Source of the DNA: Alphaproteobacteria bacterium
GTDB lineage: Bacteria > Pseudomonadota > Alphaproteobacteria > GCA-2731375
NCBI GenBank assembly: GCA_965225945.1
Contig: CBDDBZ010000025.1
Coordinates: 64,001 to 128,000 of the forward strand
Reading direction: 5' to 3'
DNA: 64,000 nt
The position numbers were made by a program, and so were the translations under genes. Of this stretch, positions 3,291-61,476 are shown in pieces. The stretch's first letter is position 1, and each line of letters opens with the position of its first letter. The notes below the pieces were generated by a model. That model ran no database searches and was not told the DNA's origin. It saw only the letters and a program-made list of their open reading frames with translations.

Positions 3291-4638
3291 CGTCTCGGCC
3301 AGCAGCCCTGATTTCGTAAGTTTACATTTTCGTAACTGCCCAGGTACATGGTGGCCTTTTAGGCGGCGTGGAGACGCTCGATCAGGGTTTCGGGATTTTC
3401 CATGAGCGCCTGGATGATGTTCCAGCCCTGTTTTCTGGCGGTCGAGATGAAGCCGCGGACGGTGGCAAAGTCTTCGGCGCCTTTCTGGCTGCGGAAGCCG
3501 CCGGAGATTTTCTGCTTGACCTTCATCATGCGCCCGTCCTGCTCGGCCTGATTGTTGGTGAACGGCACGGCGAAATTGATGAGGAAGCGCAGCGCGTCTT
3601 CCTTGTGTGTCTGAAGGCGCCGGAGAAGGTTGTGCCCGGTGCGGCGCGGCTTGCTTCCCCGGCGCTTGGCCTTGCTCGATCTGGGCGCAAGAGGAGGTTG
3701 TGCCTCGTGAAAGGCGATGCCCTCGGCCGTGATCGCGTCGTAACACCCTCGGAAGCGCTCGACGAGGCCTGGTTTCAGCGCCACGCCCCGCTCCCGGGCG
3801 AGATTTACCGCGTGGCAGGCGCGGCGCAATAGTCTCTGCATCTTGCGTGCCCAGCCCTCCTTCTCGATCTCGATCAGGGCTTGCAACTCGCGCAGGTGAT
3901 GGGCGTTGCACAGCGCGTGCCGTACGCCCTCCATCGTAAAGTACGGCTTCCAGTGGTCATGGACGACGATGCCGCCGACTCCGCCGAGCAGGCTGCCGCG
4001 TCGCTCCGAGACCCGATAGAAGGTCAACCGCGCGGTCGAGGCGACGTGCAACCATTGGGTCCGCCCGGCGATCCGCAAGCCGGTCTCGTCCATGTGCTTG
4101 ACCGGCGCCGATTTCACCAGTTCGCGGATCACATCGACGACGCCTTGGACGGACTCGGCGCTGTTCCCGCCCATCCGCGCGAGGCTCGCCGGAGACAGTT
4201 CCGCCCCGAACAGATCCTTCATCAATTCAGCCAGGCGGTCCTCGGGCAGGAGTTGGTAGTGCGACAGGTAGACCACCATGGCTCCGATCCGAGCGCCGTA
4301 TTGAACCGGGCCGGTGATGGCGACGGGAAAAGAAGCCCGAGTGTACGTGCCGCAATGCCCGCAACGGCAGCGATGCGCCCGATGCTCCGTGACCACCAGG
4401 GGCCGGGGCTCGGGTAGATCGAAAACCTGGCGGGCCCCATGGCCGGTAGCCATATCCGGCGTCAATCCCGAACCACACCACTGGTACGTCTCGGGATAAT
4501 GGTCGACGGTGGCGTCGGGATCGGCGACTTGGCGCAGGGTCTCGCCCTTGTGGCCCTTTTGCCCGCCCGGCTTGCGGGCCGATTTCTTACGGAGGCTCCT
4601 GGTGCGCTTCTTTTTACCCGCCGGTGGCTTGTTCAATC

Positions 4639-5393
4639 CATGCCTATCCGGTTATCACCCACACCCACTATATGTAGTGTGTCTCCTTGGACTGCAGGCA
4701 AGGGCCGGCGCAGGCGCATTGAGGAGGCGATCCGGCTAATTCTTGATTGTTCTGAAAACCGAACCGGAGTTTAATTCACGTCACGTACTTAACATCGGGG
4801 GACGGAACGGTGGCGACCAAGGGAAAAACGAAGAAACCCACGGCCAGACGGGAAGCTGCTGATGAAACGACATCGTCTGAGCGATTGACGGCACTAGTCG
4901 AAGAAAGCGACGCGCTGGCACGAATCGTTGCGAAGAACCCGTCCGCGCCTGTTAGTCTCCTGCGCGTTTTGAGTCGCAGCGAAGACGAAGCGACACGCAA
5001 GAACGTGATCCTCAATCCGTTTACTTCATATGACGTATTGAGCGAACTTGAAAACCAGTTCACAGAGCTATTTGTGAATAATCCGGCACTCGAATCCTAC
5101 AATTCAATGAAGCTCTGATTTCCTGGAATATTCCATCGGTGTCGTTCACCTCCGATTTCAGATAAATTTCAATGAAGTGACGGTCCTTTATGCAACGTGG
5201 CGTTTTGCCAAATCCGACTCAATGATTAGGATTTCCACCACGCTAAAGTGTCGCCTAAAAGGCGCTACAATGCCGTCCGAGTCCCTGCTCGGCATCGCCG
5301 GAGATATCTCCGCTTCGACCTGCACCGAGCTTTACTCAGGAAAATGGGTGCACACTACATATAGTGGGTGTGGGTGATAACCGGATAGGCAAG
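4639..5393. mobile_element. Non-autonomous mobile cassette (MITE/MIC-like) carrying a passenger gene
   Basis: 41-bp perfect inverted repeats at 4641-4681 and 5351-5391; duplicated target GTTCAATC(CAT) at 4631-4641 and 5394-5404; visibly AT-richer interior; no transposase. Confidence 0.88.
4810..5118 (+). CDS. Small leucine-rich-repeat-variant/HEAT-like helical repeat protein (cassette passenger)
   Basis: 102 aa with repeated VAKNPSAPVSLLRVL / VILNPFTSYDVLSEL / VNNPAL units; purine-rich RBS before GTG. Confidence 0.6.
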   Translation: MATKGKTKKPTARREAADETTSSERLTALVEESDALARIVAKNPSAPVSLLRVLSRSEDEATRKNVILNPFTSYDVLSELENQFTELFVNNPALESYNSMKL

Positions 5394-5892
5394 GTTCAAT
5401 CCATCGCTCGACGGTGGCTTGCCGCTGTTCGTGCTGTTCAGGCCAAGCCGGCGCTCGAGTTCACCAAGCCGGAGTTCGAACTCGGCGAGCCGCGACCCTT
5501 GGGCCAGCACCACATCGATCAGCTCGTCTTTCGACAAAAAGGCAAGAACATCCCTATCCATCGAATCCTTAGAATCGACCAACCACCCTATGTCAAACGA
5601 AATCTAGGCCGTCAGCGCCCCAAACCCACAAAATCTGCCCCCAGAGACCCAATCCGCAGCCTCATCGAAATCAGCTACCTGGGCAGTTACACATTTTCTT
5701 TAATATTTTGTGCTGCGCGGTCCCACGCATAGTGATATAGGGCGCGCGGGGAGGACGGCGGCCGCTCTTCAGATGGGTGCGCCGTCGAGGCGACACAAGG
5801 GTTGGGCAGGCCGTCCATCGGGCGGCGCCGTCGCCGGTCGGTGAAGCGAATATCGGAGGGGCCGCCTGGCGGCGTTGGCGTCGAGTTTTCCA

Positions 5893-6861
5893 ATGAACAG
5901 GCTTTCAGTGTGCGCCGGGGCGGTGATCGCCCTGGGCCTCGCCATGATCACCGTCGCGGCGCGGTCCGGAGAAGCCGTCCGCTCCGGCGACGAGGCCGAG
6001 CTGCGTCGGATCGCGACCGGTGAGAATTACGCGGGCAAGCGGCGGGCGGGGACGAAGCCCCGGGTTGTCGGCCGGCTGGACGCGCGGCGGCTGCAGGCCC
6101 GATTTCGCGCTCTCGGCTACGATCTGGAGAAGGTGCGGGCGCGGACACGCCCGGTACCCCAAATCTTCCTCGCGGCATTACCGGAGGATCTGGGGCGGCT
6201 CCGCTTGGTGAGCCAACGCAAGCGGCTGTTCATAGGGGCCGTGCTGCCGCTGGTGCTGCGCGCCAACGCGGAGGTCGGCCGCGAGCGGCGCTTCCTGCTC
6301 GAGCTGCGGACGCGGCTCCATGCCGGGGATGAGCTCGCGGTGGCGGAGCGTCGGCGCCTCGAGGATCTGGCGCTCGGCTACGAGGTCGAATCGGGCGATC
6401 TCGACGCGCTGTTGCGCCGCGTCGACGTGGTGCCGCCTTCGCTCGCGCTGGCGCAGGCGGTGGAGGAATCGGGTTGGGGAACCTCCCGCTTCGCGCGCCG
6501 TGGCAATGCCGTCTTCGGCCAGCGCACCTGGCGGAGCGGCGGCGGGATGGTGCCGCTGCGGCGCGAGAACGGCAAGCGCCACGAAGTGGCGGCCTTCGGC
6601 GCGCTCTACGCGTCGGTCCATGCCTATCTCCGCAACCTGAACAGCCATCCGGCCTATCGCGACTTCCGCCGCCTCAGGGCACGAGCCCGGGCGCGCGGCG
6701 GGACTGCTACCGCCGCTGCCCTCATCCGCACAATGACCCGCTATTCCGAGCGGGGGCCGGCATATATCCGGGCCATTCTCGCCATTATCCGCGTCAACCG
6801 GCTGGGTGCTTACGACAAGGCGCGCCTGGCGCCGGATACGAGCGTCGGGATCATGCTCTAA
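5893..6861 (+). CDS. Bax-like glucosaminidase-domain (GH73-type) protein
   Basis: N-terminal hydrophobic anchor; LALAQAVEESGWGTSRFA, NLNSHPAY and YSERGPAY motifs. Confidence 0.85.
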   Translation: MNRLSVCAGAVIALGLAMITVAARSGEAVRSGDEAELRRIATGENYAGKRRAGTKPRVVGRLDARRLQARFRALGYDLEKVRARTRPVPQIFLAALPEDLGRLRLVSQRKRLFIGAVLPLVLRANAEVGRERRFLLELRTRLHAGDELAVAERRRLEDLALGYEVESGDLDALLRRVDVVPPSLALAQAVEESGWGTSRFARRGNAVFGQRTWRSGGGMVPLRRENGKRHEVAAFGALYASVHAYLRNLNSHPAYRDFRRLRARARARGGTATAAALIRTMTRYSERGPAYIRAILAIIRVNRLGAYDKARLAPDTSVGIML

Positions 6862-7919
6862 GGCGAGATCACGAACTGCAGGCCGAACCAGCGCCAGCGG
6901 TCGTCGCCGGCGGGCATGGTGCAGTTGATCCGCCCGCGCGGCGGGCGGAACGGCGCCGAGAGGCCTATCTCCACTTCCCGGTGCCCGACCCTGCGGATCG
7001 GCGCGGCGCCCTTGGCGTTGGAGGCATAACAGCGCAACGAATCGATCGCGCCGGACCTGGGCGCCACCCGGAAGCCGATCGTCGGTGGATTGCTCGCCTC
7101 GTCGAGCACCGTCTCGAGTGGCCTCAGGCCTTCCAGGTAGAGCGGCAGGGCGTTGGCGGCGAGGCAAAACCGGCCCGTCTGACCGAAGGCCAGGTTCATC
7201 GCGAAGCGGGGCAAGCCGAAAAGATCGGCCTCTGCGTGGGCGACGCCGGAATGCTGTCCGAAGGCGGCCTGGAAGCCGGCCTCCCGCGCCAGGCGCCTTT
7301 CCCTGAGGCCGTATTCCCCGAAGGGATAGGCCAGCAGCGTCGGCGCGAAACCCAGTTCCTCGCGGATGCGGTGGATCGAGCGGGCGAGCTCGTCGCGCGC
7401 GTCCTCCTCGCCGAGCCGCGTCAGGTGCGGATGGCCGGCGGTCTGACTGCCAATACCGACGCCGCCGGCCGCCATCTCGCGGATCTGGTTCCAGGTCATG
7501 TAGTCCGGGCGGCGCTGATCGATCGCGTCGGTGGCGACGAAGAGGGTCGCCGGAATGCCGGCCTTGCGCAGCCGGGGCCAAGCGTTGCGGTAGGCGCTGG
7601 CGAAGGCGTCGTCGATGGTAAAGGCGATCGCGCGCTCCGGCAGCGTATCGCGGCGCCGCAGCGCCTGCACGATCCGCTCCAGCGGCAGCGCGACGAGGCC
7701 CGAGCGCTCGACCTCCCCGAGATGGGCGTCGAACTGGGTGAGCGTGGTGTTGGTGCTCGGATGCCGGTCGGCGCCGAAGCGGTGGTAGGTAAAGACGACG
7801 GCGGAGTCGGCGCCGAGCACCGGCGCGGCCAGCAGCGAGGCGGCCATCGCGGCGGCCACGGCCCCCCACCGGGGCCGCGACCGGGCCGCTCGCCGCGCCT
7901 TCAGCCCGTCGCGCCGCAC
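6858..7919 (-). CDS. Polysaccharide deacetylase family protein
   Basis: YHRF, TIDDA, HPHL and AYPFGEY motifs; GTG at 7919 with GGAGG RBS. Confidence 0.85.
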   Translation of the reverse strand: MRRDGLKARRAARSRPRWGAVAAAMAASLLAAPVLGADSAVVFTYHRFGADRHPSTNTTLTQFDAHLGEVERSGLVALPLERIVQALRRRDTLPERAIAFTIDDAFASAYRNAWPRLRKAGIPATLFVATDAIDQRRPDYMTWNQIREMAAGGVGIGSQTAGHPHLTRLGEEDARDELARSIHRIREELGFAPTLLAYPFGEYGLRERRLAREAGFQAAFGQHSGVAHAEADLFGLPRFAMNLAFGQTGRFCLAANALPLYLEGLRPLETVLDEASNPPTIGFRVAPRSGAIDSLRCYASNAKGAAPIRRVGHREVEIGLSAPFRPPRGRINCTMPAGDDRWRWFGLQFVISP

Positions 7920-51314: not shown

Positions 51315-52373
51315 GTGAACGACCCCACGATCCGCGTCCTCGGCATCGAGACCAGTTGCGACGAAACCGCGGCGGCGCTCGTCAGGGGCGACGGCCGCAT
51401 CCTCGCCGAGCGGTTGGCGAGCCAGACGGCCGAGCACGCGCCCTACGGCGGCGTGGTGCCGGAGATCGCCGCGCGCGCCCATGTCTCGCGGCTGGACCAT
51501 CTGATCGCCGATGTGATGGCGGAAGCGAAGCTGCCGTTGGGTGAAATCGACGCGGTCGCCGCGACCGCCGGCCCCGGCCTGATCGGCGGCCTGCTGGTCG
51601 GTCTCTCGACGGCGAAGGCGATCGCCTCCATCCTCGCCAAGCCCCTGCTCGCGGTCAACCACCTGGAAGGCCATGCCTTGAGCGCCCGCCTGGTCGCCGA
51701 GGTGCCGTTTCCCTATCTGCTGCTGCTGGTCTCGGGCGGGCACTGCCAGTTGCAGCTGGTGCGCGGCGTCGGGCGCTACGATCGCCTGGGCACGACGATC
51801 GACGACGCGGTGGGGGAGGCCTTCGACAAGACCGCGATCCTGCTCGGCCTCGGCTTTCCGGGCGGGCCGGCGATCGAGCGGGCGGCGGTGGACGGTCGGG
51901 CCGACGCCTATCCGCTGCCCCGCCCGATGCGGGCGCGCGAGGGTGCCAATTTCTCCTTCTCCGGCCTGAAGACGGCGGTGCGCTACCTGCTGGAGCGCGA
52001 GCCCGGAGCGCGGCCGGCGGACGTGGCGGCGAGCTTTCAGGCGGCGGTGGTCGAGGTGCTGGTGGACCGCACTCGCCGGGCCATCGCCATGGCCCGCGCG
52101 CGCGACGGCGCGACGGCGCATCTGGTCGTCGCCGGCGGTGTCGCCGCCAACCGCGCGATTCGTGGCGCAATGGCGGAGCTCGCAGGCAGCGAAGGCTTGG
52201 ACCTGGTGGTGCCGCCGCCCCGGCTCTGCACCGACAACGCGGTGATGATCGCCTGGGCCGGGGTGGAGCGCCTGCGTCTCGGGCTGATAGACGACCTCTC
52301 GGCACCTGCCCGGGCCCGCTGGCCGCTCGACCCCGACGCCAAGCCCGCGCCCTTCGCGGGCGTCAAGGCATAG
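51315..52373 (+). CDS. tsaD: tRNA N6-adenosine threonylcarbamoyltransferase
   Basis: [19 protein letters not shown] and CTDNAVM motifs. Confidence 0.96.
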
Positions 52374-52395
52374 CGCTGGGCGTCCGCCCCCGGCG

Positions 52396-53157
52396 CTATC
52401 CGATACCCGCGCGTCGGCGGAAGGCGGGGTCGGCGAGGGAGATCTCCTGGCCGCTCAGGTCGCGCGCCGCCGGGGTGCAAAGATAGACGATGGCCCGCGC
52501 GGGATCGTCGAGCGAACCCAGATTCTCGCGGGGAATCCGGCTTACCGGGTTGATCCCCGAGGCGCGGATTTGCACCTGCATGTCGGTGTCAACCGTGCCG
52601 GGAGAGAGACCATGGACGCGAATTCCATCGCCGCCGGCCTCCAGCGCCAGCGAGCGCGTCACCATGGCCAAGCCGGCCTTGCCCGCGCAATAGGCGCTCC
52701 AGCCCTCGAGGGGGCGGTGGGCGGCGCCGGAGGACAGGTTGATGATGGTCCCCCGACCGGCCGCGCGCATGGCCGCCAGCACGGCATGAATGCAGTTGTA
52801 GGCACCGATCAGATTGATCTCGATATTGCGGACCCAGGCCGAGGGATCGCCGTCGCCGAGCCGGCCGATCGGCTCGACCACGCCGGCATTGTTGACCAGT
52901 GCCTCGATCGGCCCGAGCCGGTCGCGGGTGGCCCGGACCATGGCCACGACCTGAGCCCAATCGGCGACGTCCGTGGCCATGGCTTCGGCCCGGCCGCCGG
53001 CGTCGCGAATTCGCCGGGCGACGGCCTCGGCCTGGGCGCCGTTGCGGGCCGCGAGCATGACCGCCGCGCTCGCCGCGCCCAAGGCCCTCGCCGCGGCGGC
53101 GCCGATCCCTCGGCTCGCCCCGGTGACGACGACCACTTGCCCGCCCAACCCATCCAT
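52396..53157 (-). CDS. SDR family oxidoreductase
   Basis: TGASRGIG, NNAG and YCAGK motifs. Confidence 0.9.
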   Translation of the reverse strand: MDGLGGQVVVVTGASRGIGAAAARALGAASAAVMLAARNGAQAEAVARRIRDAGGRAEAMATDVADWAQVVAMVRATRDRLGPIEALVNNAGVVEPIGRLGDGDPSAWVRNIEINLIGAYNCIHAVLAAMRAAGRGTIINLSSGAAHRPLEGWSAYCAGKAGLAMVTRSLALEAGGDGIRVHGLSPGTVDTDMQVQIRASGINPVSRIPRENLGSLDDPARAIVYLCTPAARDLSGQEISLADPAFRRRAGIG

Positions 53158-53267
53158 ATTCGTCGCTCCCTCGCATTCTCGTCCCTCGGGCGGCGGCGTA
53201 TGGCGCCGCATTTTCAGGTCCTTGTCGGTTTCGATTGCCGCGCCGTCCCGCTCGGCGGAGGGCGGGC

Positions 53268-54086
53268 TCAATTCGCGTGGATCCACCAGAGCAGGCCGCC
53301 GCCCAGGATCAGGCGGTAGATCACGAAGATCGTGTAGCTGGAGTGGCGCACCCAGAACATCAGGAAGGCGATGGCGAGCAGCGCCGCGACGAAGGCCAGC
53401 GCACCGGCCACGAGCACGGATATACCGAACTGGAGATCGCCGCTCGCCGCCACCTCGACCGTGGCGTAGCCGCCGGCGGCGAGGATCGCCGGGATCGACA
53501 GCAGCATCGAGAAGCGCGCCGCCGCCGCCCGCTCCATCCCCAGCAGGCGGCCGCCGATGATGCAGGCGCCGGCCCGGCTGGTGCCCGGAACCAGCGCGAA
53601 ACACTGAATCAGGCCGATGAGCAGCGCGCCGCGCCAGGTCAGCTGGTCGAACGCGCCGGTGGTCCGCCCCGTTAGATCGACGGTATAGAGGACGGCGGCG
53701 AAGACGATGGTGGCCCAGGCGATCACCTCGAGCGAGCGCAGCATCTCGTCGATACCGAAGCGGGTCAGAGCCACGCCGGCGACGATCAGCGGGATCGTGC
53801 CCACCGCGAGCAGAACCAGGAGCGGCGTGTCCGGCGTCGCCTGGCCGCGGGCCAGCGCCAGGAGCGCGCGCAGCAGGCGGCGAACCTCGTCGCGGAAATA
53901 GATCCCCACCGCCCCGAGGGTGCCGACATGGACGGCGATGTCGAGCTCGATCCCCTGGTCCGGCCACTCGGCGATCACCGGCACCAGGATCAGATGGGCC
54001 GACGAGCTTATCGGCAGAAATTCGGTGATGCCCTGGACCAGCGCCAGGACGACAATCTGCACCAGCCCGACCGGACCTTCCGCCAT
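53268..54086 (-). CDS. uppP: Undecaprenyl-diphosphate phosphatase
   Basis: QGITEFLPISSSAHL and PGTSR motifs. Confidence 0.95.
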   Translation of the reverse strand: MAEGPVGLVQIVVLALVQGITEFLPISSSAHLILVPVIAEWPDQGIELDIAVHVGTLGAVGIYFRDEVRRLLRALLALARGQATPDTPLLVLLAVGTIPLIVAGVALTRFGIDEMLRSLEVIAWATIVFAAVLYTVDLTGRTTGAFDQLTWRGALLIGLIQCFALVPGTSRAGACIIGGRLLGMERAAAARFSMLLSIPAILAAGGYATVEVAASGDLQFGISVLVAGALAFVAALLAIAFLMFWVRHSSYTIFVIYRLILGGGLLWWIHAN

Positions 54087-54185
54087 GGTGTCCCCTCGTT
54101 GGCGCCGTTACCGTCGCATTCGGCAGCGTCCGGTGTTCTTCCTAAGTCCTTTATACCACGGGGATTCTGGTCCGACTCGCGGAAT

Positions 54186-54971
54186 TTAATCTCGATTTGA
54201 CTCGATAGCCGCTAGACATGCCGTGTCGACGACGAGTTCGCGGAGCAGGCGGCGGAGATCGCCGAAATTTTCGAAGGTCGCGTCGGGCGCCGCCTCGCCC
54301 GCGCCGATCGAGACCTCGGGGCGGCGCATCTGCAGCGCCGTGATGCCGAAGCCGCGGGCGCCCTGGATATCTTTCACCGGATCGTCGCCGATCATCCAGA
54401 CCTCGGCCGGCGAGACGCCGAGCTTGTCGATCACCAGCCGGAAGGGCGCGAAGGCCGGCTTGTCGGCACCCGCCTCCTCCGAGGTCACGACGAAGTCGAA
54501 GGCCCCCTCGAGGCCGAAGTAGATCAGCTTGCGGAACTGGATTTGGGCGGTGAGGTCGGTGAGGACCGCCGTCGCGATCCCGGCGCTCCGGAGGTCGCGG
54601 ACAAAGTCGTCGACCTCCGCGAACAAGCGCGCATGCGCCAGAAAGGCCCGCCAGTAGGTCTGCTCCAGGTCCAGGCTGGTCAGCGGCCGGCTCTTCATGC
54701 CGAGTAATTCGACGGCGCGGTGGTAGTAGAGCAATCGGTTGTGGGAGCTCGCGGTATCGCCCAACTGCGACTTCACCGCCGCGCGCCCTCGTGCCACCGC
54801 CTCGCGGAACGCCCCTCGCTCGACGCCCAGCAATTGGACCGCCTTCTCCTCGACGATCTCGCTCGCCGCCTCATGCGCGGGTGCGTAGGCGTAAAGGGTG
54901 TCGTCGAAATCGAGGATCACCGCGGCCGGCGCCTTGGCCAGCGCATCCGGGGTCAATCGCTTCACCGCCAT
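54186..54971 (-). CDS. HAD-superfamily hydrolase
   Basis: DFDDTL, KP and GDDPVKD motifs. Confidence 0.88.
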   Translation of the reverse strand: MAVKRLTPDALAKAPAAVILDFDDTLYAYAPAHEAASEIVEEKAVQLLGVERGAFREAVARGRAAVKSQLGDTASSHNRLLYYHRAVELLGMKSRPLTSLDLEQTYWRAFLAHARLFAEVDDFVRDLRSAGIATAVLTDLTAQIQFRKLIYFGLEGAFDFVVTSEEAGADKPAFAPFRLVIDKLGVSPAEVWMIGDDPVKDIQGARGFGITALQMRRPEVSIGAGEAAPDATFENFGDLRRLLRELVVDTACLAAIESNRD

Positions 54972-57043
54972 GTTCGGTCCCTCAACGCTTGCTCGATCTC
55001 GACCAAGGTGACGAGCTGCATGATACCGCCCATTCGCCCGCTCCATGTCGGCGAGCGGTCCAACAGCTCGTCAAGCCGGGGTACCAGCATTTGCGCGGCG
55101 AGCGCGATATCCGCCGCCGCCACCTCGCCGTCGACCGTGAAGGCGACCGTGGCCTCGTGGTCGATCTCCTCGACATCGACCCTGAGGCCGCAGACCCCGA
55201 TCAGGACTCGCGACAACTGTTCGTAGTAGAGCCCTTCGCGCAGCCGGACGTGCAGCTTCACCCGGGTTTCGTCGATTCCCCGCTCGTCGCGGAGCATATC
55301 GGGGTGGACCGGCAGGAGGGTGAAGACGAGGTCGGCGTGGCGTGCCTGGGGCTGGATGTAACGCGCGCCGTCAGGTCGGCGGCGTTCGATCGAGGCGGTG
55401 ACCGCCGCCGGATCATGCCCGCGCTCGCCGACGTCGCGGGCGATCTTCCAATGGCGACGCAGGTCTTCCTCGGTGGCGACGAAGATGGCGAGGTCGAGGC
55501 GGCTCCGGAGCTCCGGCGGATAGAGCGTGTGCAAGCCGGAGACGATGACCACGTCGTTCGGCGGGATCACCTCGGGCGCCGTGAACCGCCCGGTGGCGTG
55601 ATCGTAGCGCCGGGCGACGACCCGGCGACCCTCGATCATGCCGAGCGCGTCCTCGGTGAACCGCCGGAGGTCGTTGGCGCGTGGGTCGAGATGGGTCAGC
55701 GCGCGCCACATCGGCTCCTGCCGTTCCCAGTTGTGATAGTCGTCGCCGGTGACATGGGTCACCGCCCGCTCGCCGAAGAGCCCGGCGATCGCCAACGCCA
55801 ATGTGCTCTTGCCGGTGCCGGAATCGCCGGCAATGCCGATCGCCAGCGGGCGGCGGCCGAGCCGGTGGAAGTCGTTGCCGGTGATCCCGCGCCGGTACAT
55901 GCCCACCGCCAACACGACCCCGAGCGCGGTGACCAGGGTGAGCCAGAGCGAGCGCGCGTGCGGCGTCACATGGGCGGCGAACTCCGCCCCCTGCCAGGTG
56001 TAGTCGAGGCCGAGGAACGGCACCCCGGCGCCCTGCGAATAGAGCAGGTGATAGGGGATCAGCAGCAGCGCGAAGACGCTGGTCAGGAAGACGGCGTTGC
56101 CGCCCACTCGGAGCTGGTGGAGGGCGAGGAAAGGCAGCACCCAGAGGTACCAGCCGACCGAGGCCGGCGTCATCAAGACGACGACGACGAAGACGACGCC
56201 GAGGATCGCCAACAGCAGCTCGAAATTCTGCCGGCGAAACCGCCAGACGACGTAGAGCACCAGGAGATAGACCAAGGGCGTCAGATAGATGCCGAGGCCC
56301 GGCGCGAGGTCGATCGAGAGCTGATAGACCTTGCCGATCTCACGGCTGCCGAAGACCATCTGGGTGAAGCCGGGCGAGAGTAGCCAAGGCCCCTGGGCCG
56401 CCAGCAAGGTGGCGGCGGCGGCGGCGGCGAAGGGGATCGCCAGGTCGCGCGTCCGCTTGTTGACCCAGAGGTAGAGCAGCAGGAAGGGTGCCGCGAGCAC
56501 CATCGACAGCTTGGCGACGATGGCGAGGCCGGTGGCGATGCCGGCGGCATGCGGCCTGGCGCTCTTCAGATAGAGCAGCGCGCCGAGCAGAAAGGCGACC
56601 GGCACCACGTCGGTCTGGCCGTGCCAATAGGTGATGTAGAAGGAGAAGGGCGAAAGCCAGTAGAAGATCAGGATCTCGCGCGGACGGTCGTCGACGATTC
56701 GGGTCAGCAACAGCAGTGCCCAGACGTCGGCGAACAACAGGCTCGCGCGGAATCCGACGCCGGCCAGATAGTCGATATTCAGCAGTTGATCGGCCAGCAT
56801 CCCGACGGCGACCGACGGCAGGTGCGCCAGCAGCATAACGGTGCCATAGGGAAAGGCGAGCGCATCGCCGCCCTGGGCGATGAAGTCGGTCCAGGGGTCC
56901 GCGCTCGGCGAGGTCACCAGGAATTGGACGAAGGGCAGGAACCATTCTCGCTGCACCTCCGGCACCACCAGGGCGACGAGCAGCAGCTTCGCCACCAAGC
57001 CCGCCCGGAAGAGCGGCTGTCGCGAGAGCGCCTTCAGGTCCAT
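54962..57043 (-). CDS. GT-C-like multi-pass membrane protein fused to a phosphoribulokinase/uridine kinase-family domain
   Basis: About 10-12 hydrophobic segments with FPYG, HGQTD and AK motifs; then GDSGTGKST, DDYH, RDVGERGH and YIQPQ. Confidence 0.8.
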   Translation of the reverse strand: MDLKALSRQPLFRAGLVAKLLLVALVVPEVQREWFLPFVQFLVTSPSADPWTDFIAQGGDALAFPYGTVMLLAHLPSVAVGMLADQLLNIDYLAGVGFRASLLFADVWALLLLTRIVDDRPREILIFYWLSPFSFYITYWHGQTDVVPVAFLLGALLYLKSARPHAAGIATGLAIVAKLSMVLAAPFLLLYLWVNKRTRDLAIPFAAAAAATLLAAQGPWLLSPGFTQMVFGSREIGKVYQLSIDLAPGLGIYLTPLVYLLVLYVVWRFRRQNFELLLAILGVVFVVVVLMTPASVGWYLWVLPFLALHQLRVGGNAVFLTSVFALLLIPYHLLYSQGAGVPFLGLDYTWQGAEFAAHVTPHARSLWLTLVTALGVVLAVGMYRRGITGNDFHRLGRRPLAIGIAGDSGTGKSTLALAIAGLFGERAVTHVTGDDYHNWERQEPMWRALTHLDPRANDLRRFTEDALGMIEGRRVVARRYDHATGRFTAPEVIPPNDVVIVSGLHTLYPPELRSRLDLAIFVATEEDLRRHWKIARDVGERGHDPAAVTASIERRRPDGARYIQPQARHADLVFTLLPVHPDMLRDERGIDETRVKLHVRLREGLYYEQLSRVLIGVCGLRVDVEEIDHEATVAFTVDGEVAAADIALAAQMLVPRLDELLDRSPTWSGRMGGIMQLVTLVEIEQALRDRTWR

Positions 57044-57074
57044 CACGGCAAGCCTGGCGCGCGCGAGCTTCGGA

Positions 57075-57659
57075 TCAGCGCCAAAGCTCGGGCGCCTTGG
57101 TGCAGACCGCCTCGGCCCGGATGCCGCGGTTCGCCAGCAGTCGCCGCATGTCGGCGATTTCGGAGGTCTCGCGCCCCTGCAATTCGGGCGAGACCAGGCA
57201 GAGGCGGAAACCGGCGGCCTGCAATGATTCGGCCTCAGCACGGCACAGCGGGAACTTGGTGAAACAGTCGACCCAGGCCCACTCGATCATGCCGGCGAGC
57301 GCCAGCGCGGTATCGAGCGTCTCGTATTCCGACACGCGGACGGCGCAGCGCCTCTCGCCCGCCCGTGCGGTGCGGATCAAGAATGGGAAGGACTGGTCGA
57401 GGAAGAAGAAATTTTCAATTCCCTCGGCCGCCACCGCCGCCAGCACGTGCGTCTCCAGCCCTTCTTCCTTGACGTTCAGGATCAAGGTGCCGTGCGCATA
57501 GGCTTGAAGCCAGTCCTCGAACCGCTCACCGACGACGAAGGGGTCGTGGTGGATCACCAAGTCGTCGCCCTGGCTGCGGATGTCGACTTCGATGCCGAGC
57601 TCGCGCGGTGTCGCCTCCAGCTCGGCCCGGGTGTTGCGGCGATGGCGGATCAGGATCAT
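57075..57659 (-). CDS. Short GDPD/PI-PLC-like phosphodiesterase-fold protein
   Basis: HRRN, GIEVDIR, HHDP, LNVKEEG and VCTK motifs. Confidence 0.7.
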   Translation of the reverse strand: MILIRHRRNTRAELEATPRELGIEVDIRSQGDDLVIHHDPFVVGERFEDWLQAYAHGTLILNVKEEGLETHVLAAVAAEGIENFFFLDQSFPFLIRTARAGERRCAVRVSEYETLDTALALAGMIEWAWVDCFTKFPLCRAEAESLQAAGFRLCLVSPELQGRETSEIADMRRLLANRGIRAEAVCTKAPELWR

Positions 57660-58369
57660 GCGGCTTCCCTCAAGCGCCGGCGGAGTTCCAGGCTGTAGCT
57701 CATGGTGCGGTGGATGAAGCGCGCCTTGGCCTTCCAGTCGACGTTCCAGCGCGAGATGCCGTGCGCCCGCGGGCCGAAGCGGACGGGAAAGCGCCGCACC
57801 TCCAGGCCGGCGATCCGGGCCTGATAATAGGCGTAGAGATCGAGCGAGAAATCCCCCGGCGGCGCCCGCCAGCTCTCGAAGAAGGCGCGGGGGAACATGG
57901 TCGGTTGGGCGTTGATGTCCCACATCGCGCGCGCCAGCAGCATGGTCTCGAAGGCGGCCATGCCCACAGTGAAGGCGACGTCGGCCAGCGGCCGGCCGAA
58001 GCGGCGGCCCTTGACGAAAAGCTGCTCGGGCCGCACCGCCGCCTCGAACAGCGCCAGGCCCCTGAGCGCGTCCTCCGGATCGGTCTGCATATCGGCGTGG
58101 GTCCAGGCGAGGATGTCGCCCTTGGCCACGGCGAGCCCGGCGAGGACGCCGTTGCCGTAGCCCTGGTTGATCTCGACGCGGGTGGTTTCGAGGAAGCCGT
58201 GTTCCCGCGCCGCGGCCGCCAGAATCGCGTCGCTGCCGTCGGCGGAGCCGTTGTCCACCAGCACGACCTCGACGTCGTCATGGCCCATCACCTCGGCCAG
58301 GCGGCCGATCAGCAGCGGCAGGTTGGCCGCCTCGTTGTAGCAGGGGATGACCAGCGACAGGGCCGTCAC
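57656..58369 (-). CDS. Glycosyltransferase family 2 (polyprenyl-phosphate glycosyltransferase-like)
   Basis: VIPCYNE, VDNGSADG, NQGYG, HADMQ and RAHGISRW motifs. Confidence 0.9.
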   Translation of the reverse strand: MTALSLVIPCYNEAANLPLLIGRLAEVMGHDDVEVVLVDNGSADGSDAILAAAAREHGFLETTRVEINQGYGNGVLAGLAVAKGDILAWTHADMQTDPEDALRGLALFEAAVRPEQLFVKGRRFGRPLADVAFTVGMAAFETMLLARAMWDINAQPTMFPRAFFESWRAPPGDFSLDLYAYYQARIAGLEVRRFPVRFGPRAHGISRWNVDWKAKARFIHRTMSYSLELRRRLREAA

Positions 58370-58612
58370 GGGCGACCTCCGGGCAAGCACCGCGAATCGC
58401 GGACCAAGGGTAGCATATCGACGCTGACGAGCCGCCACTCGGCACCCTTCGTCTCGAGGGTGTGGGATCGCCCGGGTCCAAGGGCAAAGAGGTCACCGTG
58501 AGATGATGGGCGCACGCCGCGCCTCGCGATTGCTGCTCGAGGACTCCCGGACGTCGGAGGCGATAGACTGGCCTCGGACCAACGCGCCCGAGTTGCGGGG
58601 AGATCGCCTTTC

Positions 58613-59845
58613 ATGTCGATGCTGGTAATCGAGAACTGTCGGCTGCTGGATCCCGCCCGGGGCGAGGCGGTCGAGCGGGCCCATGTGCTGGTGGAAGACG
58701 ACCGCATCCGCGAAATCGCCACCAGGCGGATCCGCGCCGGCCGGATCCGGCGCCTGAACGCCGAGGGCCGCACGCTGATCCCGGGCTTGATCGACGCTCA
58801 TGTCCACCTCATCGCCACCAGCCTCGACCTCGGCCAGATCGATCGGGAAAGCGCAATGCTGACCGGCGCCCGCGCGCGGCTGATCATGGAGGCCATGCTG
58901 GACCGCGGCTTCACCACGGTGCGCGACGCGGGCGGCGCCGATTGGGGCCTCGCCAAGGCGGTCGAGGCCGGCCTGATCCGGGGCCCCCGCGTCTTCTTCG
59001 CCGGCCATGCCTTGAGCCAGACCGGCGGTCACGGCGATTTTCGCCCCCTCACCTGGTCGGGCGACGGTTGCCCGGCCTGCGCCGGCGAGACCTTCGCCGT
59101 CATCGCCGATGGGGTCGACGCGGTGCGCAAGGCGGCCAGGGAGGAGCTGCGCCGCGGCGCGCACCAGATCAAGATCATGGCCTCGGGTGGCGTCGCCTCG
59201 CCCAGCGATCCGATCTGGAACCTGCAGTATTCGGAGGAGGAGATCGCCGCCGCCGTCTGGGAGGCCAAGTCGTGGAAGACTTACGTCATGGCGCACGCCT
59301 ATACGCCCGAGGCGATCGGGCGCGCCGTCCGCCTCGGCGTCCGCTCGATCGAGCACGGCAACCTGCTCGACGGCGACACCGCCCGGCTGATGGCCAGCCG
59401 GGGCGCCTTCCTGGTGCCGACGCTCGCCACCTACGAGGCGCTGGCGCGGGACGGTGAACGATTGGGCTTCCCCGCCGCCTCGATCGCCAAGATCGAGGAC
59501 GTGCGCGAAGTCGGCCTGCGCAGCCTGGAGATCGCCCGCGAGGCCGGCGTCGAGACCGGCTACGGCACCGACCTCCTGGGCGCATGCCACGAGCATCAGT
59601 CCGACGAGTTCACCATCCGCGCTCGGGTCTTGGCGCCGCTGGAGGTGCTGCGGAGCGCCACCTCGACCAATGCCCGGCTGCTGAACCGGGCCGGCGAGCT
59701 CGGCACCATCGCCGAGGGCGCAATCGCCGATCTGTTGCTGGTCGACGGCGATCCCTTGCGCGATTTGGCCCTGTTGCAGGGCCAAGGCCGGCACCTGAGC
59801 CTGATCATGCAGGGCGGGCGACTCCACAAATCGACCTTGGACTAG
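58613..59845 (+). CDS. Metal-dependent amidohydrolase (prolidase-like subgroup)
   Basis: PGLIDAHVH, TGGHGD, AHAY, SIEHG and GTD motifs. Confidence 0.9.
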   Translation: MSMLVIENCRLLDPARGEAVERAHVLVEDDRIREIATRRIRAGRIRRLNAEGRTLIPGLIDAHVHLIATSLDLGQIDRESAMLTGARARLIMEAMLDRGFTTVRDAGGADWGLAKAVEAGLIRGPRVFFAGHALSQTGGHGDFRPLTWSGDGCPACAGETFAVIADGVDAVRKAAREELRRGAHQIKIMASGGVASPSDPIWNLQYSEEEIAAAVWEAKSWKTYVMAHAYTPEAIGRAVRLGVRSIEHGNLLDGDTARLMASRGAFLVPTLATYEALARDGERLGFPAASIAKIEDVREVGLRSLEIAREAGVETGYGTDLLGACHEHQSDEFTIRARVLAPLEVLRSATSTNARLLNRAGELGTIAEGAIADLLLVDGDPLRDLALLQGQGRHLSLIMQGGRLHKSTLD

Positions 59846-59859
59846 GGAGACGGCGCGTC

Positions 59860-61476
59860 ATGGCGAAGCTGCGAAAAGCGATGATCTCGGCCGCCCAGCC
59901 GGAGGCGGTGGAGGCCGGCGCGGTGGTGCTGCAAAGGGGCGGCAACGCGGTCGACGCGGCGATGGCCTGCGCCCTGGTACAGGGCGTGGTCGATCCGCAG
60001 ATGTGCGGCATCGCCGGCTTCGGCAGCCTGCAGGTCCATCTGCCCGAGCGCGGCGTCCATGAATGCATCGACTTCCACGGCAAGACACCCGCCGCCGCCA
60101 CCGAGGGCATGTGGGAGAAGCTGGTCATCAGCGAAACGCGGGACGGCTTCGGCTTCATCCTGGAGGGCCGGGTGAACGAGGTCGGCCATCAGTCGATTAC
60201 CGTGCCCGGCAGCCTCTTGGCCTACCACGAGGCGCAGAGCGAATGGGGTACCTGGGACTGGGCCGATATCGTCCAGCCGGCGATAGAGCAGGCCGAGCGA
60301 GGCTTTGCCGTCCGCCCCCACGTCTACAATTGGTGGACCGAGCCGGGCCTCTTCGACCGACTGGAGACGACCGATAGGCTGCGTCACACCGAGGACGGGC
60401 GGCGGATCTATTTCCATCCCGACGGCACGCTCAAGCGGCCGGGCGAGCGGGTCGAGAACCCCGACATGGCGCGCACGCTGCGGCGGATCGCCGATGGCGG
60501 GGCCGAGGTCTTCTATAGCGGCGAGATCGCCGAGGAGATCGTGGCCGACATGAAGGCGAACGGGGGCCTGCTGAGCGCCCGGGACCTCGCCGACTTTCGC
60601 ACCACGCGCACGGCGCCGCTGCGGGGCACCTACCGGGATTTCGAGATCGCCACCAACCAGCCCCCCGGCGGCGGCATCATGGTGCTGCAGATGCTGAACA
60701 CGCTGGAGAATTTCGATCTCGCCAGCCTCGGCCACAACGCGGCGGAATACCTGCGCGTCGTCGCCGAGGCGATGAAGCTCGCCACCATCGACAAGGAGGC
60801 CCGCGTGGGCGATCCCGCCTTCGTCGAGGTGCCGGTCGAGGAGCTGTGCGGCAAGGCCTACGCGGCCGAGCTCGCGACGCGGATCCGGCTCAGGCAGAAG
60901 GCGCACGTGAGCCGGCTCCAGGGCCCGGCGGAATCCAAGCAGACCACCCAGGTCTCGGTCGTCGACCGGGACGGCAACGCGGTCTCGATGACCCATTCCC
61001 TCGGCATGCCGTCGGGCGTGATCACGCCGGGTTTGGGCTTCATGTACAACGGCTGCATGTCGGTGTTCGATCCCCGGCCGGGCCGGGCCGGCTCGATCGC
61101 GCCGGGCAAGAGCCGCTTCAGCGCCATCTGCCCCTCGATGGTCTTCCGTGACGGCGAGACCCGCCTCGTCATCGGCGCGCCGGGCGGCACCCAGATCGTC
61201 ATGGGCGTGTTGCAGGCGATGCTCAACGTCTTGGAGTTCGACATGGGAATCGTCGAGGCCATCGTGGCGCCGCGCTTCTCCGCCACCAGCGACGTGCTCG
61301 AGGTCTCCAACCGCATCCCGCGCTACGTGACCGACGTGCTGAAGGGGCAGGGCTACGAGATCGGCCGCTCTCACCTGAGCTATCCCTTCGCCGGCGTGCA
61401 CGGCATTCGGATCGACGACGGCATGCCCACCGGCTTCGCCGACCCCAACCACGACGGCATGGCGCTGGGCGTGTGA
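59860..61476 (+). CDS. ggt: Gamma-glutamyltransferase family protein
   Basis: GGNAVDAA, autoprocessing site TTQVSVVD and GAPGG motifs. Confidence 0.9.
   Translation: MAKLRKAMISAAQPEAVEAGAVVLQRGGNAVDAAMACALVQGVVDPQMCGIAGFGSLQVHLPERGVHECIDFHGKTPAAATEGMWEKLVISETRDGFGFILEGRVNEVGHQSITVPGSLLAYHEAQSEWGTWDWADIVQPAIEQAERGFAVRPHVYNWWTEPGLFDRLETTDRLRHTEDGRRIYFHPDGTLKRPGERVENPDMARTLRRIADGGAEVFYSGEIAEEIVADMKANGGLLSARDLADFRTTRTAPLRGTYRDFEIATNQPPGGGIMVLQMLNTLENFDLASLGHNAAEYLRVVAEAMKLATIDKEARVGDPAFVEVPVEELCGKAYAAELATRIRLRQKAHVSRLQGPAESKQTTQVSVVDRDGNAVSMTHSLGMPSGVITPGLGFMYNGCMSVFDPRPGRAGSIAPGKSRFSAICPSMVFRDGETRLVIGAPGGTQIVMGVLQAMLNVLEFDMGIVEAIVAPRFSATSDVLEVSNRIPRYVTDVLKGQGYEIGRSHLSYPFAGVHGIRIDDGMPTGFADPNHDGMALGV

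Follow-up and report, generated by a model that had tools for sequence, protein, structure and literature searches.

The locus and its genes

The subject of this work is a candidate glycosylation cassette in an alphaproteobacterial genome (assembly GCA_965225945.1), on a stretch of 64,000 nucleotides of contig CBDDBZ010000025.1 which we call the window, and whose own numbering is used for the positions below. Four tightly coupled minus-strand genes form its core: they encode a GT2 glycosyltransferase, a GDPD-like protein, a fusion of a GT-C glycosyltransferase domain with a phosphoribulokinase (PRK) domain, and a HAD phosphatase, while the gene uppP lies just downstream. Our listing of open reading frames (ORFs) and our family scans returned these five genes with exactly the coordinates and junctions that the first-pass annotation of the window had reported:

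57656..58369, minus strand: GT2 glycosyltransferase, 237 aa, predicted polyprenyl-phosphate sugar synthase of the GtrB/ArnC/DPMS class without C-terminal membrane helices (PF00535, 73.8 bits)
57075..57659, minus strand: GDPD/PI-PLC-fold TIM-barrel protein, 194 aa, without signal peptide, predicted soluble phosphodiester-handling enzyme (fold predicted by AlphaFold2 (AF2) and matches to GDPD structures)
54962..57043, minus strand: GT-C::PRK fusion, 693 aa, whole ORF
55859..57043, minus strand: GT-C (GT87-like) polytopic membrane domain of the fusion, residues 1-395 (PF09594, 36.6 bits, residues 93-293)
54962..55858, minus strand: PRK domain of the fusion, residues 396-693, predicted cytoplasmic (PF00485, 131.6 bits, residues 402-579)
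54186..54971, minus strand: HAD-IA phosphatase, 261 aa, predicted ribulose-1,5-bisphosphate (RuBP) 5-phosphatase (PF00702, 81.1 bits; best model NF053830)
53268..54086, minus strand: uppP/bacA undecaprenyl-diphosphatase, a neighbour outside the conserved set (PF02673, 236.2 bits; NF001393, 284.5 bits)

The GT2 and GDPD-like genes overlap by 4 bp (57656-57659), a gap of 31 bp separates the GDPD-like gene from the fusion, the fusion and the HAD gene overlap by 10 bp (54962-54971), and uppP follows HAD after 99 bp. The gene starts chosen fit the points where the alignments of homologues begin; for GT2 this is the GTG codon already chosen in the first-pass annotation, the homologues aligning from residue 1-4.

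Conservation of the gene set

We scanned metagenome contigs with a profile of the GDPD-like protein and took the 80 best-scoring loci, whose GDPD-like proteins are 60-74% identical, which means that closer relatives were sampled; 26 of these loci have flanks of 5 kb or more at both ends and are called well flanked here. All 26 well-flanked loci have genes for GT2, GT-C, PRK and HAD. They are accompanied there by a class II aldolase-family gene (25/26), by two nucleotidyltransferase paralogues, NTPa and NTPb, which are usually fused (NTPab; each in 25/26), and by the flippase GtrA (22/26). All family matches are co-oriented in each of the 78 metagenome loci having any match, and the aldolase gene stands after HAD in 26 loci and before NTPa in 9. 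Since the well-flanked loci repeat the four-gene arrangement on one strand in 26 cases out of 26, this arrangement is far beyond chance. The idea of the first-pass annotation, a functional unit of the lipid-carrier (GtrA/GT2/GT-C) kind with donor-making enzymes of its own, is supported.

Full-length relatives of the fusion are found in Azospirillum, Teichococcus, Magnetofaba and Burkholderiales and in many metagenome proteins. Among 301 genomes of the class, five carry the full-length fusion, and it is absent from two genomes of the same family as the source; strong GDPD-like matches occur in the same five genomes and in a sixth, 71%-complete one, and NTPab is present in all five fusion-bearing genomes. 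Across ten genome loci, the order GT2, GDPD-like, fusion, HAD is kept in four genomes and is rearranged or partial in the others. We looked for a signature of foreign DNA and did not find it, the GC content of the genome being 66.3% and that of the cassette genes 65.6-69.6%.

The position of uppP had led the first-pass annotation to count it in the operon, and this part of the proposal is not borne out. As an integral fifth gene, uppP would regenerate undecaprenyl phosphate (Und-P), which is the predicted carrier of the pathway; it lies on the same strand, the gap is 99 bp long, and no terminator-like site was found in that gap. Yet uppP stands beside the cassette in none of the ten genome loci, none of the 80 metagenome loci and none of the 29 loci of a viral collection (see below), and it is the sole BacA-type copy found in the source genome, which is 96.6% complete; its NF001393 score passes the equivalog cut-off of 284 bits. 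Moreover, the cycle of GtrB-type enzymes in Gtr systems releases Und-P rather than undecaprenyl diphosphate, and therefore no pyrophosphatase is needed. We have thus rejected uppP as a member of the system, on its conservation across loci and its copy number, and consider its integral role very improbable: being never beside the cassettes of relatives and the only copy of the genome, it is best read as a housekeeping neighbour, a bystander to the cassette.

The flanking genes at 52396-53160 (minus strand), 58613-59845 (plus strand) and 59869-61476 (plus strand) resemble, judging by eye from their translations, an SDR, an amidohydrolase-family protein and a gamma-glutamyltranspeptidase; the downstream SDR was not seen at any of the ten genome loci. 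A scan of 52300-58800 gave no promoter-like site and one terminator-like site, inside uppP, which is fewer than in shuffled sequences and says nothing on co-transcription. Evidence from RNA is weak: two metatranscriptome runs gave only short, near-identical contigs over parts of GT2, of the GDPD-like gene and of the 5' end of uppP. Such contigs cannot show transcripts, carry-over of DNA is possible, and the parts left uncovered carry no information.

The rest of the pathway

The first-pass annotation had remarked that neither a GtrA flippase nor a nucleotidyltransferase lies in the window, and that the pathway is therefore either non-canonical or completed elsewhere. It is the second of these that is borne out: in the source genome an aldolase-family gene, a fused NTPab gene and GtrA lie together on another contig, C38 (425984-429097), GtrA occupying 428732-429097 (PF04138, 63.9 bits). 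Because these three genes lie together, the neighbourhood comparison suggested at the outset, which looked for GtrA, aldolase/epimerase and NTP transferase genes, had a positive outcome for all three. On this view the window holds one half, the core, of a system of eight or nine genes which is mobile and occurs widely.

In other carriers the whole system is found in one place. An eight-gene cassette is carried by two E. coli plasmids of about 33 kb and IncR type (NZ_CP145712.1, 6022-14984, and NZ_JCAPUP010000005.1), where it adjoins an IS26 transposase; it consists of an NTP transferase, GtrA, GT2, a PI-PLC/GDPD family protein, a "uridine kinase", HAD, a class II aldolase and a hypothetical protein of 586 aa. 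The carrier strains come one from human stool and one from a bullfrog. Near and distant DNA searches found the cassette in 2 of 5426 complete E. coli genomes, a count which does not tell whether strains of O95/O97 have a diverged copy. In Azospirillum brasilense (MTCC4039) the full set lies on plasmid p5 and adjoins genes for an ABC-transporter permease and ATP-binding protein, which are probably wzm/wzt, together with gmd and GT1 O-antigen genes; these surroundings are those of an ABC-transporter O-antigen locus. Hirschia baltica ATCC 49814 has the cassette core on plasmid pHbal01 (57630-77651, locus L135). Around that core we observed two genes for GtrA, one for another glycosyltransferase, and genes for a UDP-glucuronate decarboxylase, a methyltransferase and two hypothetical proteins of large size, which suggests two lipid-carrier modification systems side by side.

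A further gene appears to vary from carrier to carrier. A polytopic membrane protein with at least six hydrophobic segments, encoded on the same strand, abuts the cassette in 25 of the 35 loci where there is room to see it. These partners fall into clusters of 8, 4, 4, 2, 2 and 2 and 12 singletons, which are mutually unrecognisable. The partner of A. brasilense matches NF046093 ("AZOBR_p60025 cell surface glycopolymer formation protein") with 190 bits; the others have no Pfam or NCBIfam match, and the E. coli type resembles ESM atlas clusters named GtrII, DUF6056 and DUF2029, which is a lead only. In the source genome, a polytopic membrane protein of 913 aa which belongs to no family is encoded directly upstream of the aldolase, NTPab and GtrA genes (C38:423261-425999; 4262-7003 of locus L020). 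A homologue with 42% identity follows HAD in the carrier genome G164 (locus L016), and contig C36 has a partial paralogue (244922-247988); the 913-aa protein may be the acceptor-specific transferase of the source genome.

A version of the module in giant viruses

The viral collection contains 29 viral-contig loci with a GDPD-like gene, several of which are near-duplicates, so that the independent count is lower. NTPab is present in 27 of them, the aldolase-family gene in 26, PRK in 26 and GT61 in 25. Two loci, L106 and L107, are full cassettes of the bacterial type; none of the 27 others has GT2, GT-C or GtrA. The viral module is compact, consisting of GT61, NTPa-NTPb, the GDPD-like protein, the class II aldolase and PRK (L110-L134, from IMG/VR; for example L111, 7527-11680, and L114, 6270-14440), and it is surrounded by FkbM methyltransferases and other glycosyltransferases. 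A major capsid protein gene of nucleocytoplasmic large DNA virus type is found on L111 and L108, and four loci are labelled as giant-virus metagenome-assembled genomes.

The viral PRKs carry a conserved N-terminal domain of about 210 aa in place of the bacterial GT-C domain (L114:13796-14440, L111:11066-11680 and relatives). Its invariant residues are G12, R15, R109, R111, D113, N156-D157-Q158 and S185-E186, and it has no Pfam or PDB match; it might replace the HAD enzyme missing from most of these loci.

The enzymes which suggest the substrate

The PRK domain is far closer to phosphoribulokinases than to uridine kinases, both among NCBIfam models (NF005655 PRK 202.9 bits, against 84 bits for udk) and among structures of the PDB (cyanobacterial PRK 6gve, 3.7e-44, and 6hzk, 4.1e-43, against 2.5e-21 for the uridine kinase 3asy). 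The P-loop (GDSG.GK) and the motifs DDYH..R, YDH..G, RD...RG, PD and PQ are invariant or nearly so in all 16 aligned family members and align with 6gve and 6hzk; we take them to be the catalytic residues and those which bind ribulose-5-phosphate (Ru5P). The domain is thus PRK-like by its motifs, not a certified equivalog. RuBisCO (PF00016) was found in none of the five carrier genomes, while a control search found PF00016 in 5 of 14 genomes; hence the RuBP which this domain would make is not for CO2 fixation.

For the HAD protein the best NCBIfam model is NF053830, the RuBP 5-phosphatase (E = 5.9e-54, 183.2 bits, positions 3-232 of 234), and the next family reaches 93 bits. The prototype of this model is described as strict for RuBP, from which it gives cyclised ribulose-1-phosphate (Ru1P), and as operonic with a class II aldolase (PMC9700705). 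The aldolase-family protein keeps, in its bacterial and viral members, the set GGGN.S, PS.E..H, H.H and NHG, that is the phosphate-binding, glutamate and three-histidine zinc signature, and it is nearest to the aldolase half of the rhizobial rhamnulose-1-phosphate aldolase/dehydrogenases. The earlier guess of a pentulose phosphate as intermediate gains from these comparisons, the PRK being nearest to cyanobacterial PRK and the HAD to the RuBP 5-phosphatase model, and such a compound is the best candidate.

The GDPD-fold protein and the nucleotidyltransferases

The AF2 model of the GDPD-like protein built from an alignment of 20 sequences has a predicted local distance difference test (pLDDT) score of 95.3; the single-sequence model (pLDDT 59.6) was not used. 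GDPD structures head both structure searches made with this model, with Foldseek query TM-scores (TMq) of 0.70-0.74, and GlpQ is among the matches. The model shows the TIM-barrel GDPD fold, and in it His-Arg near the N-terminus, a metal site of Glu/Asp and another His further on, so that the label "GDPD-like", given by eye in the first-pass annotation, is right at the level of the fold. At the level of sequence, none of 20 family members matches the Pfam GDPD family, or any Pfam family, at E<=10, and the protein has no NCBIfam match and no PDB profile match below E 0.67. It is nevertheless the most conserved member of the set; its invariant residues include H6, R7, N9, E24, D26, R28 and H38, a His/Arg/Glu/Asp set which is presumably of the phosphodiesterase type.

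Among the best 149 of 2079 family representatives, six have the GDPD-like protein fused to a partner: GDPD-like::NTPa-NTPb, NTPa-NTPb::GDPD-like, GDPD-like::NTPa, GT2::GDPD-like, GDPD-like::GT61 and GT61::GDPD-like. A search for longer fused forms gave only 7 proteins. A few database proteins (P0242, P0245) have the GDPD-like part joined in one ORF to a downstream GT87 (and PRK), and may be true fusions or frameshifted gene calls. As the viral loci carry the module without GT2, GT-C and GtrA, the GDPD-fold enzyme would act on soluble intermediates and not on the lipid carrier; the fusions with NTPab, GT2 and GT61 likewise point to the soluble, sugar-nucleotide branch.

The two nucleotidyltransferases are of the aldose-1-phosphate (RmlA/GlmU) type, with weak matches of the IspD/TarI type. 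Since both halves of NTPab keep the motifs G.G.RF...PKP, D and K, there are likely two nucleotidylation steps, or else an obligate heterodimer.

Two variants of the module were also observed. In a small genome of 25.7% GC (locus L025; G187:C7, 4306-10264), the place of PRK, HAD and aldolase is taken by an FGGY kinase, an ASRT-family protein and a homologue of rhizobial-type L-rhamnose isomerase (556 bits), which are flanked by GT2, the GDPD-like gene and NTPab, and the locus adjoins the GT9 and GT1 genes of a lipopolysaccharide (LPS) core. A distant paralogue module, present in two genomes (L023, G290:C1, about 2504243-2507300; L024, G057:C1, about 151883-154620), consists of a nucleotidyltransferase, a GDPD-like protein, a beta-PGM-type HAD, a second nucleotidyltransferase and a cupin, fused or separate; it adjoins WavE, GT10 and capsule-synthesis genes, while a kinase, GT2 and GT-C are absent. 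Both variants support a ketose-1-phosphate as the intermediate that all these modules have in common.

The predicted lipid-carrier branch

All nine PDB sequence matches of GT2 are polyprenyl-phosphate glycosyltransferases (among them ArnC 9hwj, 5e-11, DPMS 5mlz and GtrB 5ekp). The N-terminal 105 residues or so are the only part that aligns with these enzymes. The GT-C domain scores above the PF09594 (GT87) cut-off of 25, its ESM-atlas features place it with GT87, MptA_B and PIG-U clusters at 0.96-0.98, and Y66 and D145 are invariant in it while D106 is nearly so. By a rough hydropathy profile the fusion has about ten hydrophobic segments and an acidic first loop, and its PRK domain would be cytoplasmic provided that the N-terminus lies inside, which agrees with the membrane model but does not prove it. 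Because the nearest solved relatives of GT2 are polyprenyl-phosphate enzymes, and because GtrA and GT-C are also present, the standard logic would apply by analogy: an Und-P-linked sugar would be made inside, flipped, and used outside.

Proposed pathway and alternative readings

Putting these enzymes in order, we propose that the eight or nine genes form a system which, acting on the periplasmic side, adds a sugar derived from Ru5P to a glycan of the cell surface. We set the probability of this reading at about 0.6; all the steps are deduced from sequence, fold and gene context. That the system is a glycan decoration system fed by Ru5P and mediated by Und-P we regard as quite likely, while a ketopentofuranose as the sugar delivered is tentative, with slightly less than an even chance. 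The activated sugar would probably be a ribulo- or xylulofuranose.

In this scheme the cytoplasmic PRK domain would convert Ru5P to RuBP, from which HAD would take off the 5-phosphate to give Ru1P, which unlike Ru5P is able to close a furanose ring. Our reasoning is that a ketopentose 5-phosphate cannot form a furanose because its O5 is esterified, and that moving the phosphate to C1, through PRK and then the 5-phosphatase, therefore leaves O5 free. The class II aldolase-family enzyme encoded on C38 would probably act as an epimerase, a 4-epimerisation giving L-xylulose-1-phosphate. Together, the GDPD-fold enzyme and both nucleotidyltransferases would then turn this compound into a nucleotide-activated pentulofuranose, which GT2 would load on Und-P and GtrA would flip. 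Finally, the GT-C domain, the variable GT-C-like neighbour or both would transfer the sugar to an acceptor which is likely to be an O-antigen or some polymer of that kind.

Several points weigh against this reading. Enzyme activities, sugar and acceptor are all predictions. The score of the PRK domain lies below the NF005655 cut-off of 236 bits (that for PF00485 is above its cut-off of 22), the score of the HAD lies below the NF053830 equivalog cut-off of 330 bits, and therefore the identity of the substrates is not guaranteed. It is odd that the first enzyme of the pathway should be fused to the presumed last one. A ketose 1-phosphate is not anomeric, so that the product of an ordinary nucleotidyltransferase would be no glycosyl donor, and extra assumptions are needed for the GDPD-fold enzyme and for the two nucleotidyltransferases. 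The gene content raises further doubts: the genes flanking the cassette in the window, judged by eye from translations and not by a family search, include no glycan gene; locus L001 has no GDPD-like gene within 11.8 kb; no aldolase of the cassette type was found in the carrier G164, where the best match is an ORF of 713 aa on another contig; and HAD is recognisable in only 4 of the 29 viral loci.

We considered other readings of the same genes. The sugar might be an aldopentofuranose (D-arabinofuranose, D-ribofuranose or D-xylofuranose), if the GDPD-fold barrel or the aldolase-family enzyme acted as an isomerase and turned Ru1P into an aldose-1-phosphate, which would then be nucleotidylated and passed to Und-P. 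The type of the nucleotidyltransferases suits such a substrate, and plant GT61 enzymes transfer arabinofuranose and xylose. Periplasmic three-component addition of aldopentofuranoses is established, but the bacterial routes known begin at phosphoribosyl pyrophosphate (PRPP) and not at RuBP (PMC11127046). Furthermore, the known family of ketose-1-phosphate/aldose-1-phosphate isomerases was not met in the loci scanned with Pfam, the GDPD-fold protein keeps a residue set which we take to be that of a phosphodiesterase and not of an isomerase, and the two nucleotidyltransferases would still be unexplained; we therefore judge this version of the system unlikely. A phosphodiester-linked unit seems to us more doubtful still. 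Here ribulose- or xylulose-1-phosphate would be added in the manner of a teichoic acid, with an NDP-1-pentulose as the donor of the phospho-sugar and the GDPD-fold enzyme in an editing or recycling role, as GDPD enzymes hydrolyse such phosphodiesters and GlpQ is among the structural matches. A ketose-1-phosphate and an NTP would naturally give a non-anomeric NDP-1-ketose resembling CDP-ribitol, and the weak IspD/TarI-type matches go in the same direction. On the other hand, no enzyme of the TagF, LicD or CDP-alcohol-transferase type occurs in any scanned locus, GT2, GtrA and GT-C are together the signature of glycosyl transfer through an Und-P-sugar, and the viral module is paired with GT61.

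PRK, HAD and aldolase could also be a catabolic or anaplerotic shunt (Ru5P to RuBP to Ru1P to dihydroxyacetone phosphate and glycolaldehyde) which merely adjoins glycosylation genes; the same three activities make up the haloarchaeal non-carboxylating pentose bisphosphate pathway, whose HAD and aldolase share one operon (PMC9700705). Spending ATP on the cleavage of Ru5P would be pointless in a cell with a pentose-phosphate pathway. In addition, the three enzymes are locked to NTPab, the GDPD-like protein and a glycosyltransferase both in bacteria (25-26 of 26 loci) and on giant-virus contigs (26-27 of 29), and PRK is physically fused to GT-C, so that we find a shunt hardly credible.

Returning to the decoration of a glycan with a Ru5P-derived sugar, we may speculate on how a true donor could arise. 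The soluble enzymes could represent a general new route to ketofuranosyl nucleotide donors, by what we call a "phosphate walk", an idea which we hold to be rather improbable but which gives every enzyme a use. A ketose-1,omega-bisphosphate would yield the ketose-1-phosphate, and the first nucleotidyltransferase would make from it an NDP-1-ketose; the PI-PLC/GDPD-fold enzyme would expel NMP by way of the anomeric 2-OH, giving a ketofuranose 1,2-cyclic phosphate and then the 2-phosphate, from which the second nucleotidyltransferase would produce the true donor, an NDP-2-ketofuranose. With Ru5P and a 4-epimerising aldolase-family enzyme, the product would be NDP-L-xylulofuranose.

Comparison with known systems

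In the Gtr systems of Shigella and Salmonella phages, the flippase GtrA and the GT2 enzyme GtrB, an Und-P-glucose synthase, serve a serotype-specific GT-C transferase, GtrC. The cassette likewise combines GtrA, a GT2 predicted to be of the polyprenyl-phosphate class and a GT-C; its donor side is conserved while its polytopic membrane partner varies strongly, and it is mobile, as its plasmids and patchy distribution indicate. It differs in having a predicted five-enzyme donor pathway of its own from Ru5P where Gtr systems draw on the general pool of UDP-glucose: PRK, HAD, aldolase, NTPab and the GDPD-fold protein are tied to the cassette in 25-26 of 26 loci. Its GT2 has no C-terminal membrane helices, it has one conserved GT-C which is fused to a kinase, and the GDPD-like protein has no match in cultured phage genomes.

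A five-carbon furanose is added in the periplasm by Citrobacter youngae, where Kelly et al. (2024; PMC11127046) describe a polyprenyl-phosphoribose synthase, a MATE flippase, a GT136 GT-C and an optional epimerase. The likeness lies in a side branch which a lipid-linked donor supplies after polymerisation, and whose sugar can be diversified by an auxiliary epimerase. The difference is that the lipid donor is made there straight from PRPP without any nucleotide sugar, and that a MATE flippase and GT136 serve the system, while the cassette would use PRK, HAD, aldolase, nucleotidyltransferases and the GDPD-fold enzyme with GT2, GtrA and a GT87-like GT-C. That paper does not contain the terms xylulose, ribulose, ketose, phosphoribulokinase or GT87. 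No UbiA-type polyprenyl phosphoribose synthase and no MATE flippase are found among the 70 + 30 Pfam-scanned proteins of 11 loci or in three annotated plasmid regions.

With the haloarchaeal pathway (Sato et al. 2022; PMC9700705) the cassette shares a HAD near the RuBP 5-phosphatase model which adjoins a class II aldolase-family gene, and the presumed conversion of RuBP to cyclised Ru1P. The haloarchaeal RuBP comes from nucleosides via an R15P isomerase, in a catabolic pathway, whereas that of the cassette would come from PRK and the products would feed nucleotidyltransferases and glycosyltransferases.

The succession of kinase, HAD and nucleotidyltransferase also matches that of the ADP- and GDP-heptose pathways, in which a kinase phosphorylates C1, the HAD enzyme GmhB removes the distal phosphate and the 1-phosphate is nucleotidylated. 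The cassette differs from these in its presumed ketose substrate, whose C1 is not anomeric, in the extra GDPD-fold enzyme and in the second nucleotidyltransferase.

No match to a characterised pathway was found in the literature searched, and the same holds for any description of a PRK-GT-C fusion or of an NDP- or Und-P-linked pentulose (subscription journals were not covered) and of a PRK in glycan clusters of giant viruses. We read the cassette as a variation on the three-component glycan modification theme, with a putative new donor pathway attached, undescribed as far as these searches reach.

A possible link to xylulose, and what the cassette means

Xylulofuranose (Xulf) is known from several surface glycans, and the cassette is possibly a route to the donor of xylulose on cell surfaces. 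According to a 2019 review (PMC7685785), E. coli O95 and O97 contain D-Xulf, the genes for NDP-Xulf are not in the O-antigen clusters and the nucleotide precursor is not known. In Yersinia enterocolitica O:10, L-Xulf is linked (beta2->2) to a D-rhamnan whose cluster has wzm/wzt, gmd and rmd and no Xulf genes (2024; PMC11380512). The A. brasilense cassette fits with this, as it adjoins just such a cluster of the wzm/wzt and gmd type. Chloroviruses MT325 and TN603 have Xulf, of configuration not known, on their capsid glycans (PMC9614988). These reports fit our reading of the cassette, as leads rather than as tests. The phosphate walk, if true, would explain why Xulf branches without known donor occur on the D-rhamnan O-antigens of Y. 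enterocolitica O:10 and of E. coli O95/O97, as well as Xulf in chlorovirus N-glycans; the distant paralogue module, which has no kinase, could then serve fructose or other ketoses from central bisphosphates. Ketofuranosides are acid-labile, and the modification may therefore be overlooked in LPS structures determined after mild acid hydrolysis.

For the activation of ketofuranoses such as xylulose, in bacteria and in giant viruses, the cassette offers a concrete and compact candidate pathway, which has cultured carriers and a ready-made plasmid version. The presence of the module in both bacteria and Nucleocytoviricota suggests that it is an old or an exchanged sugar-nucleotide module. Finally, the cassette suggests a new use of PRK apart from CO2 fixation and a new role of the GDPD fold.

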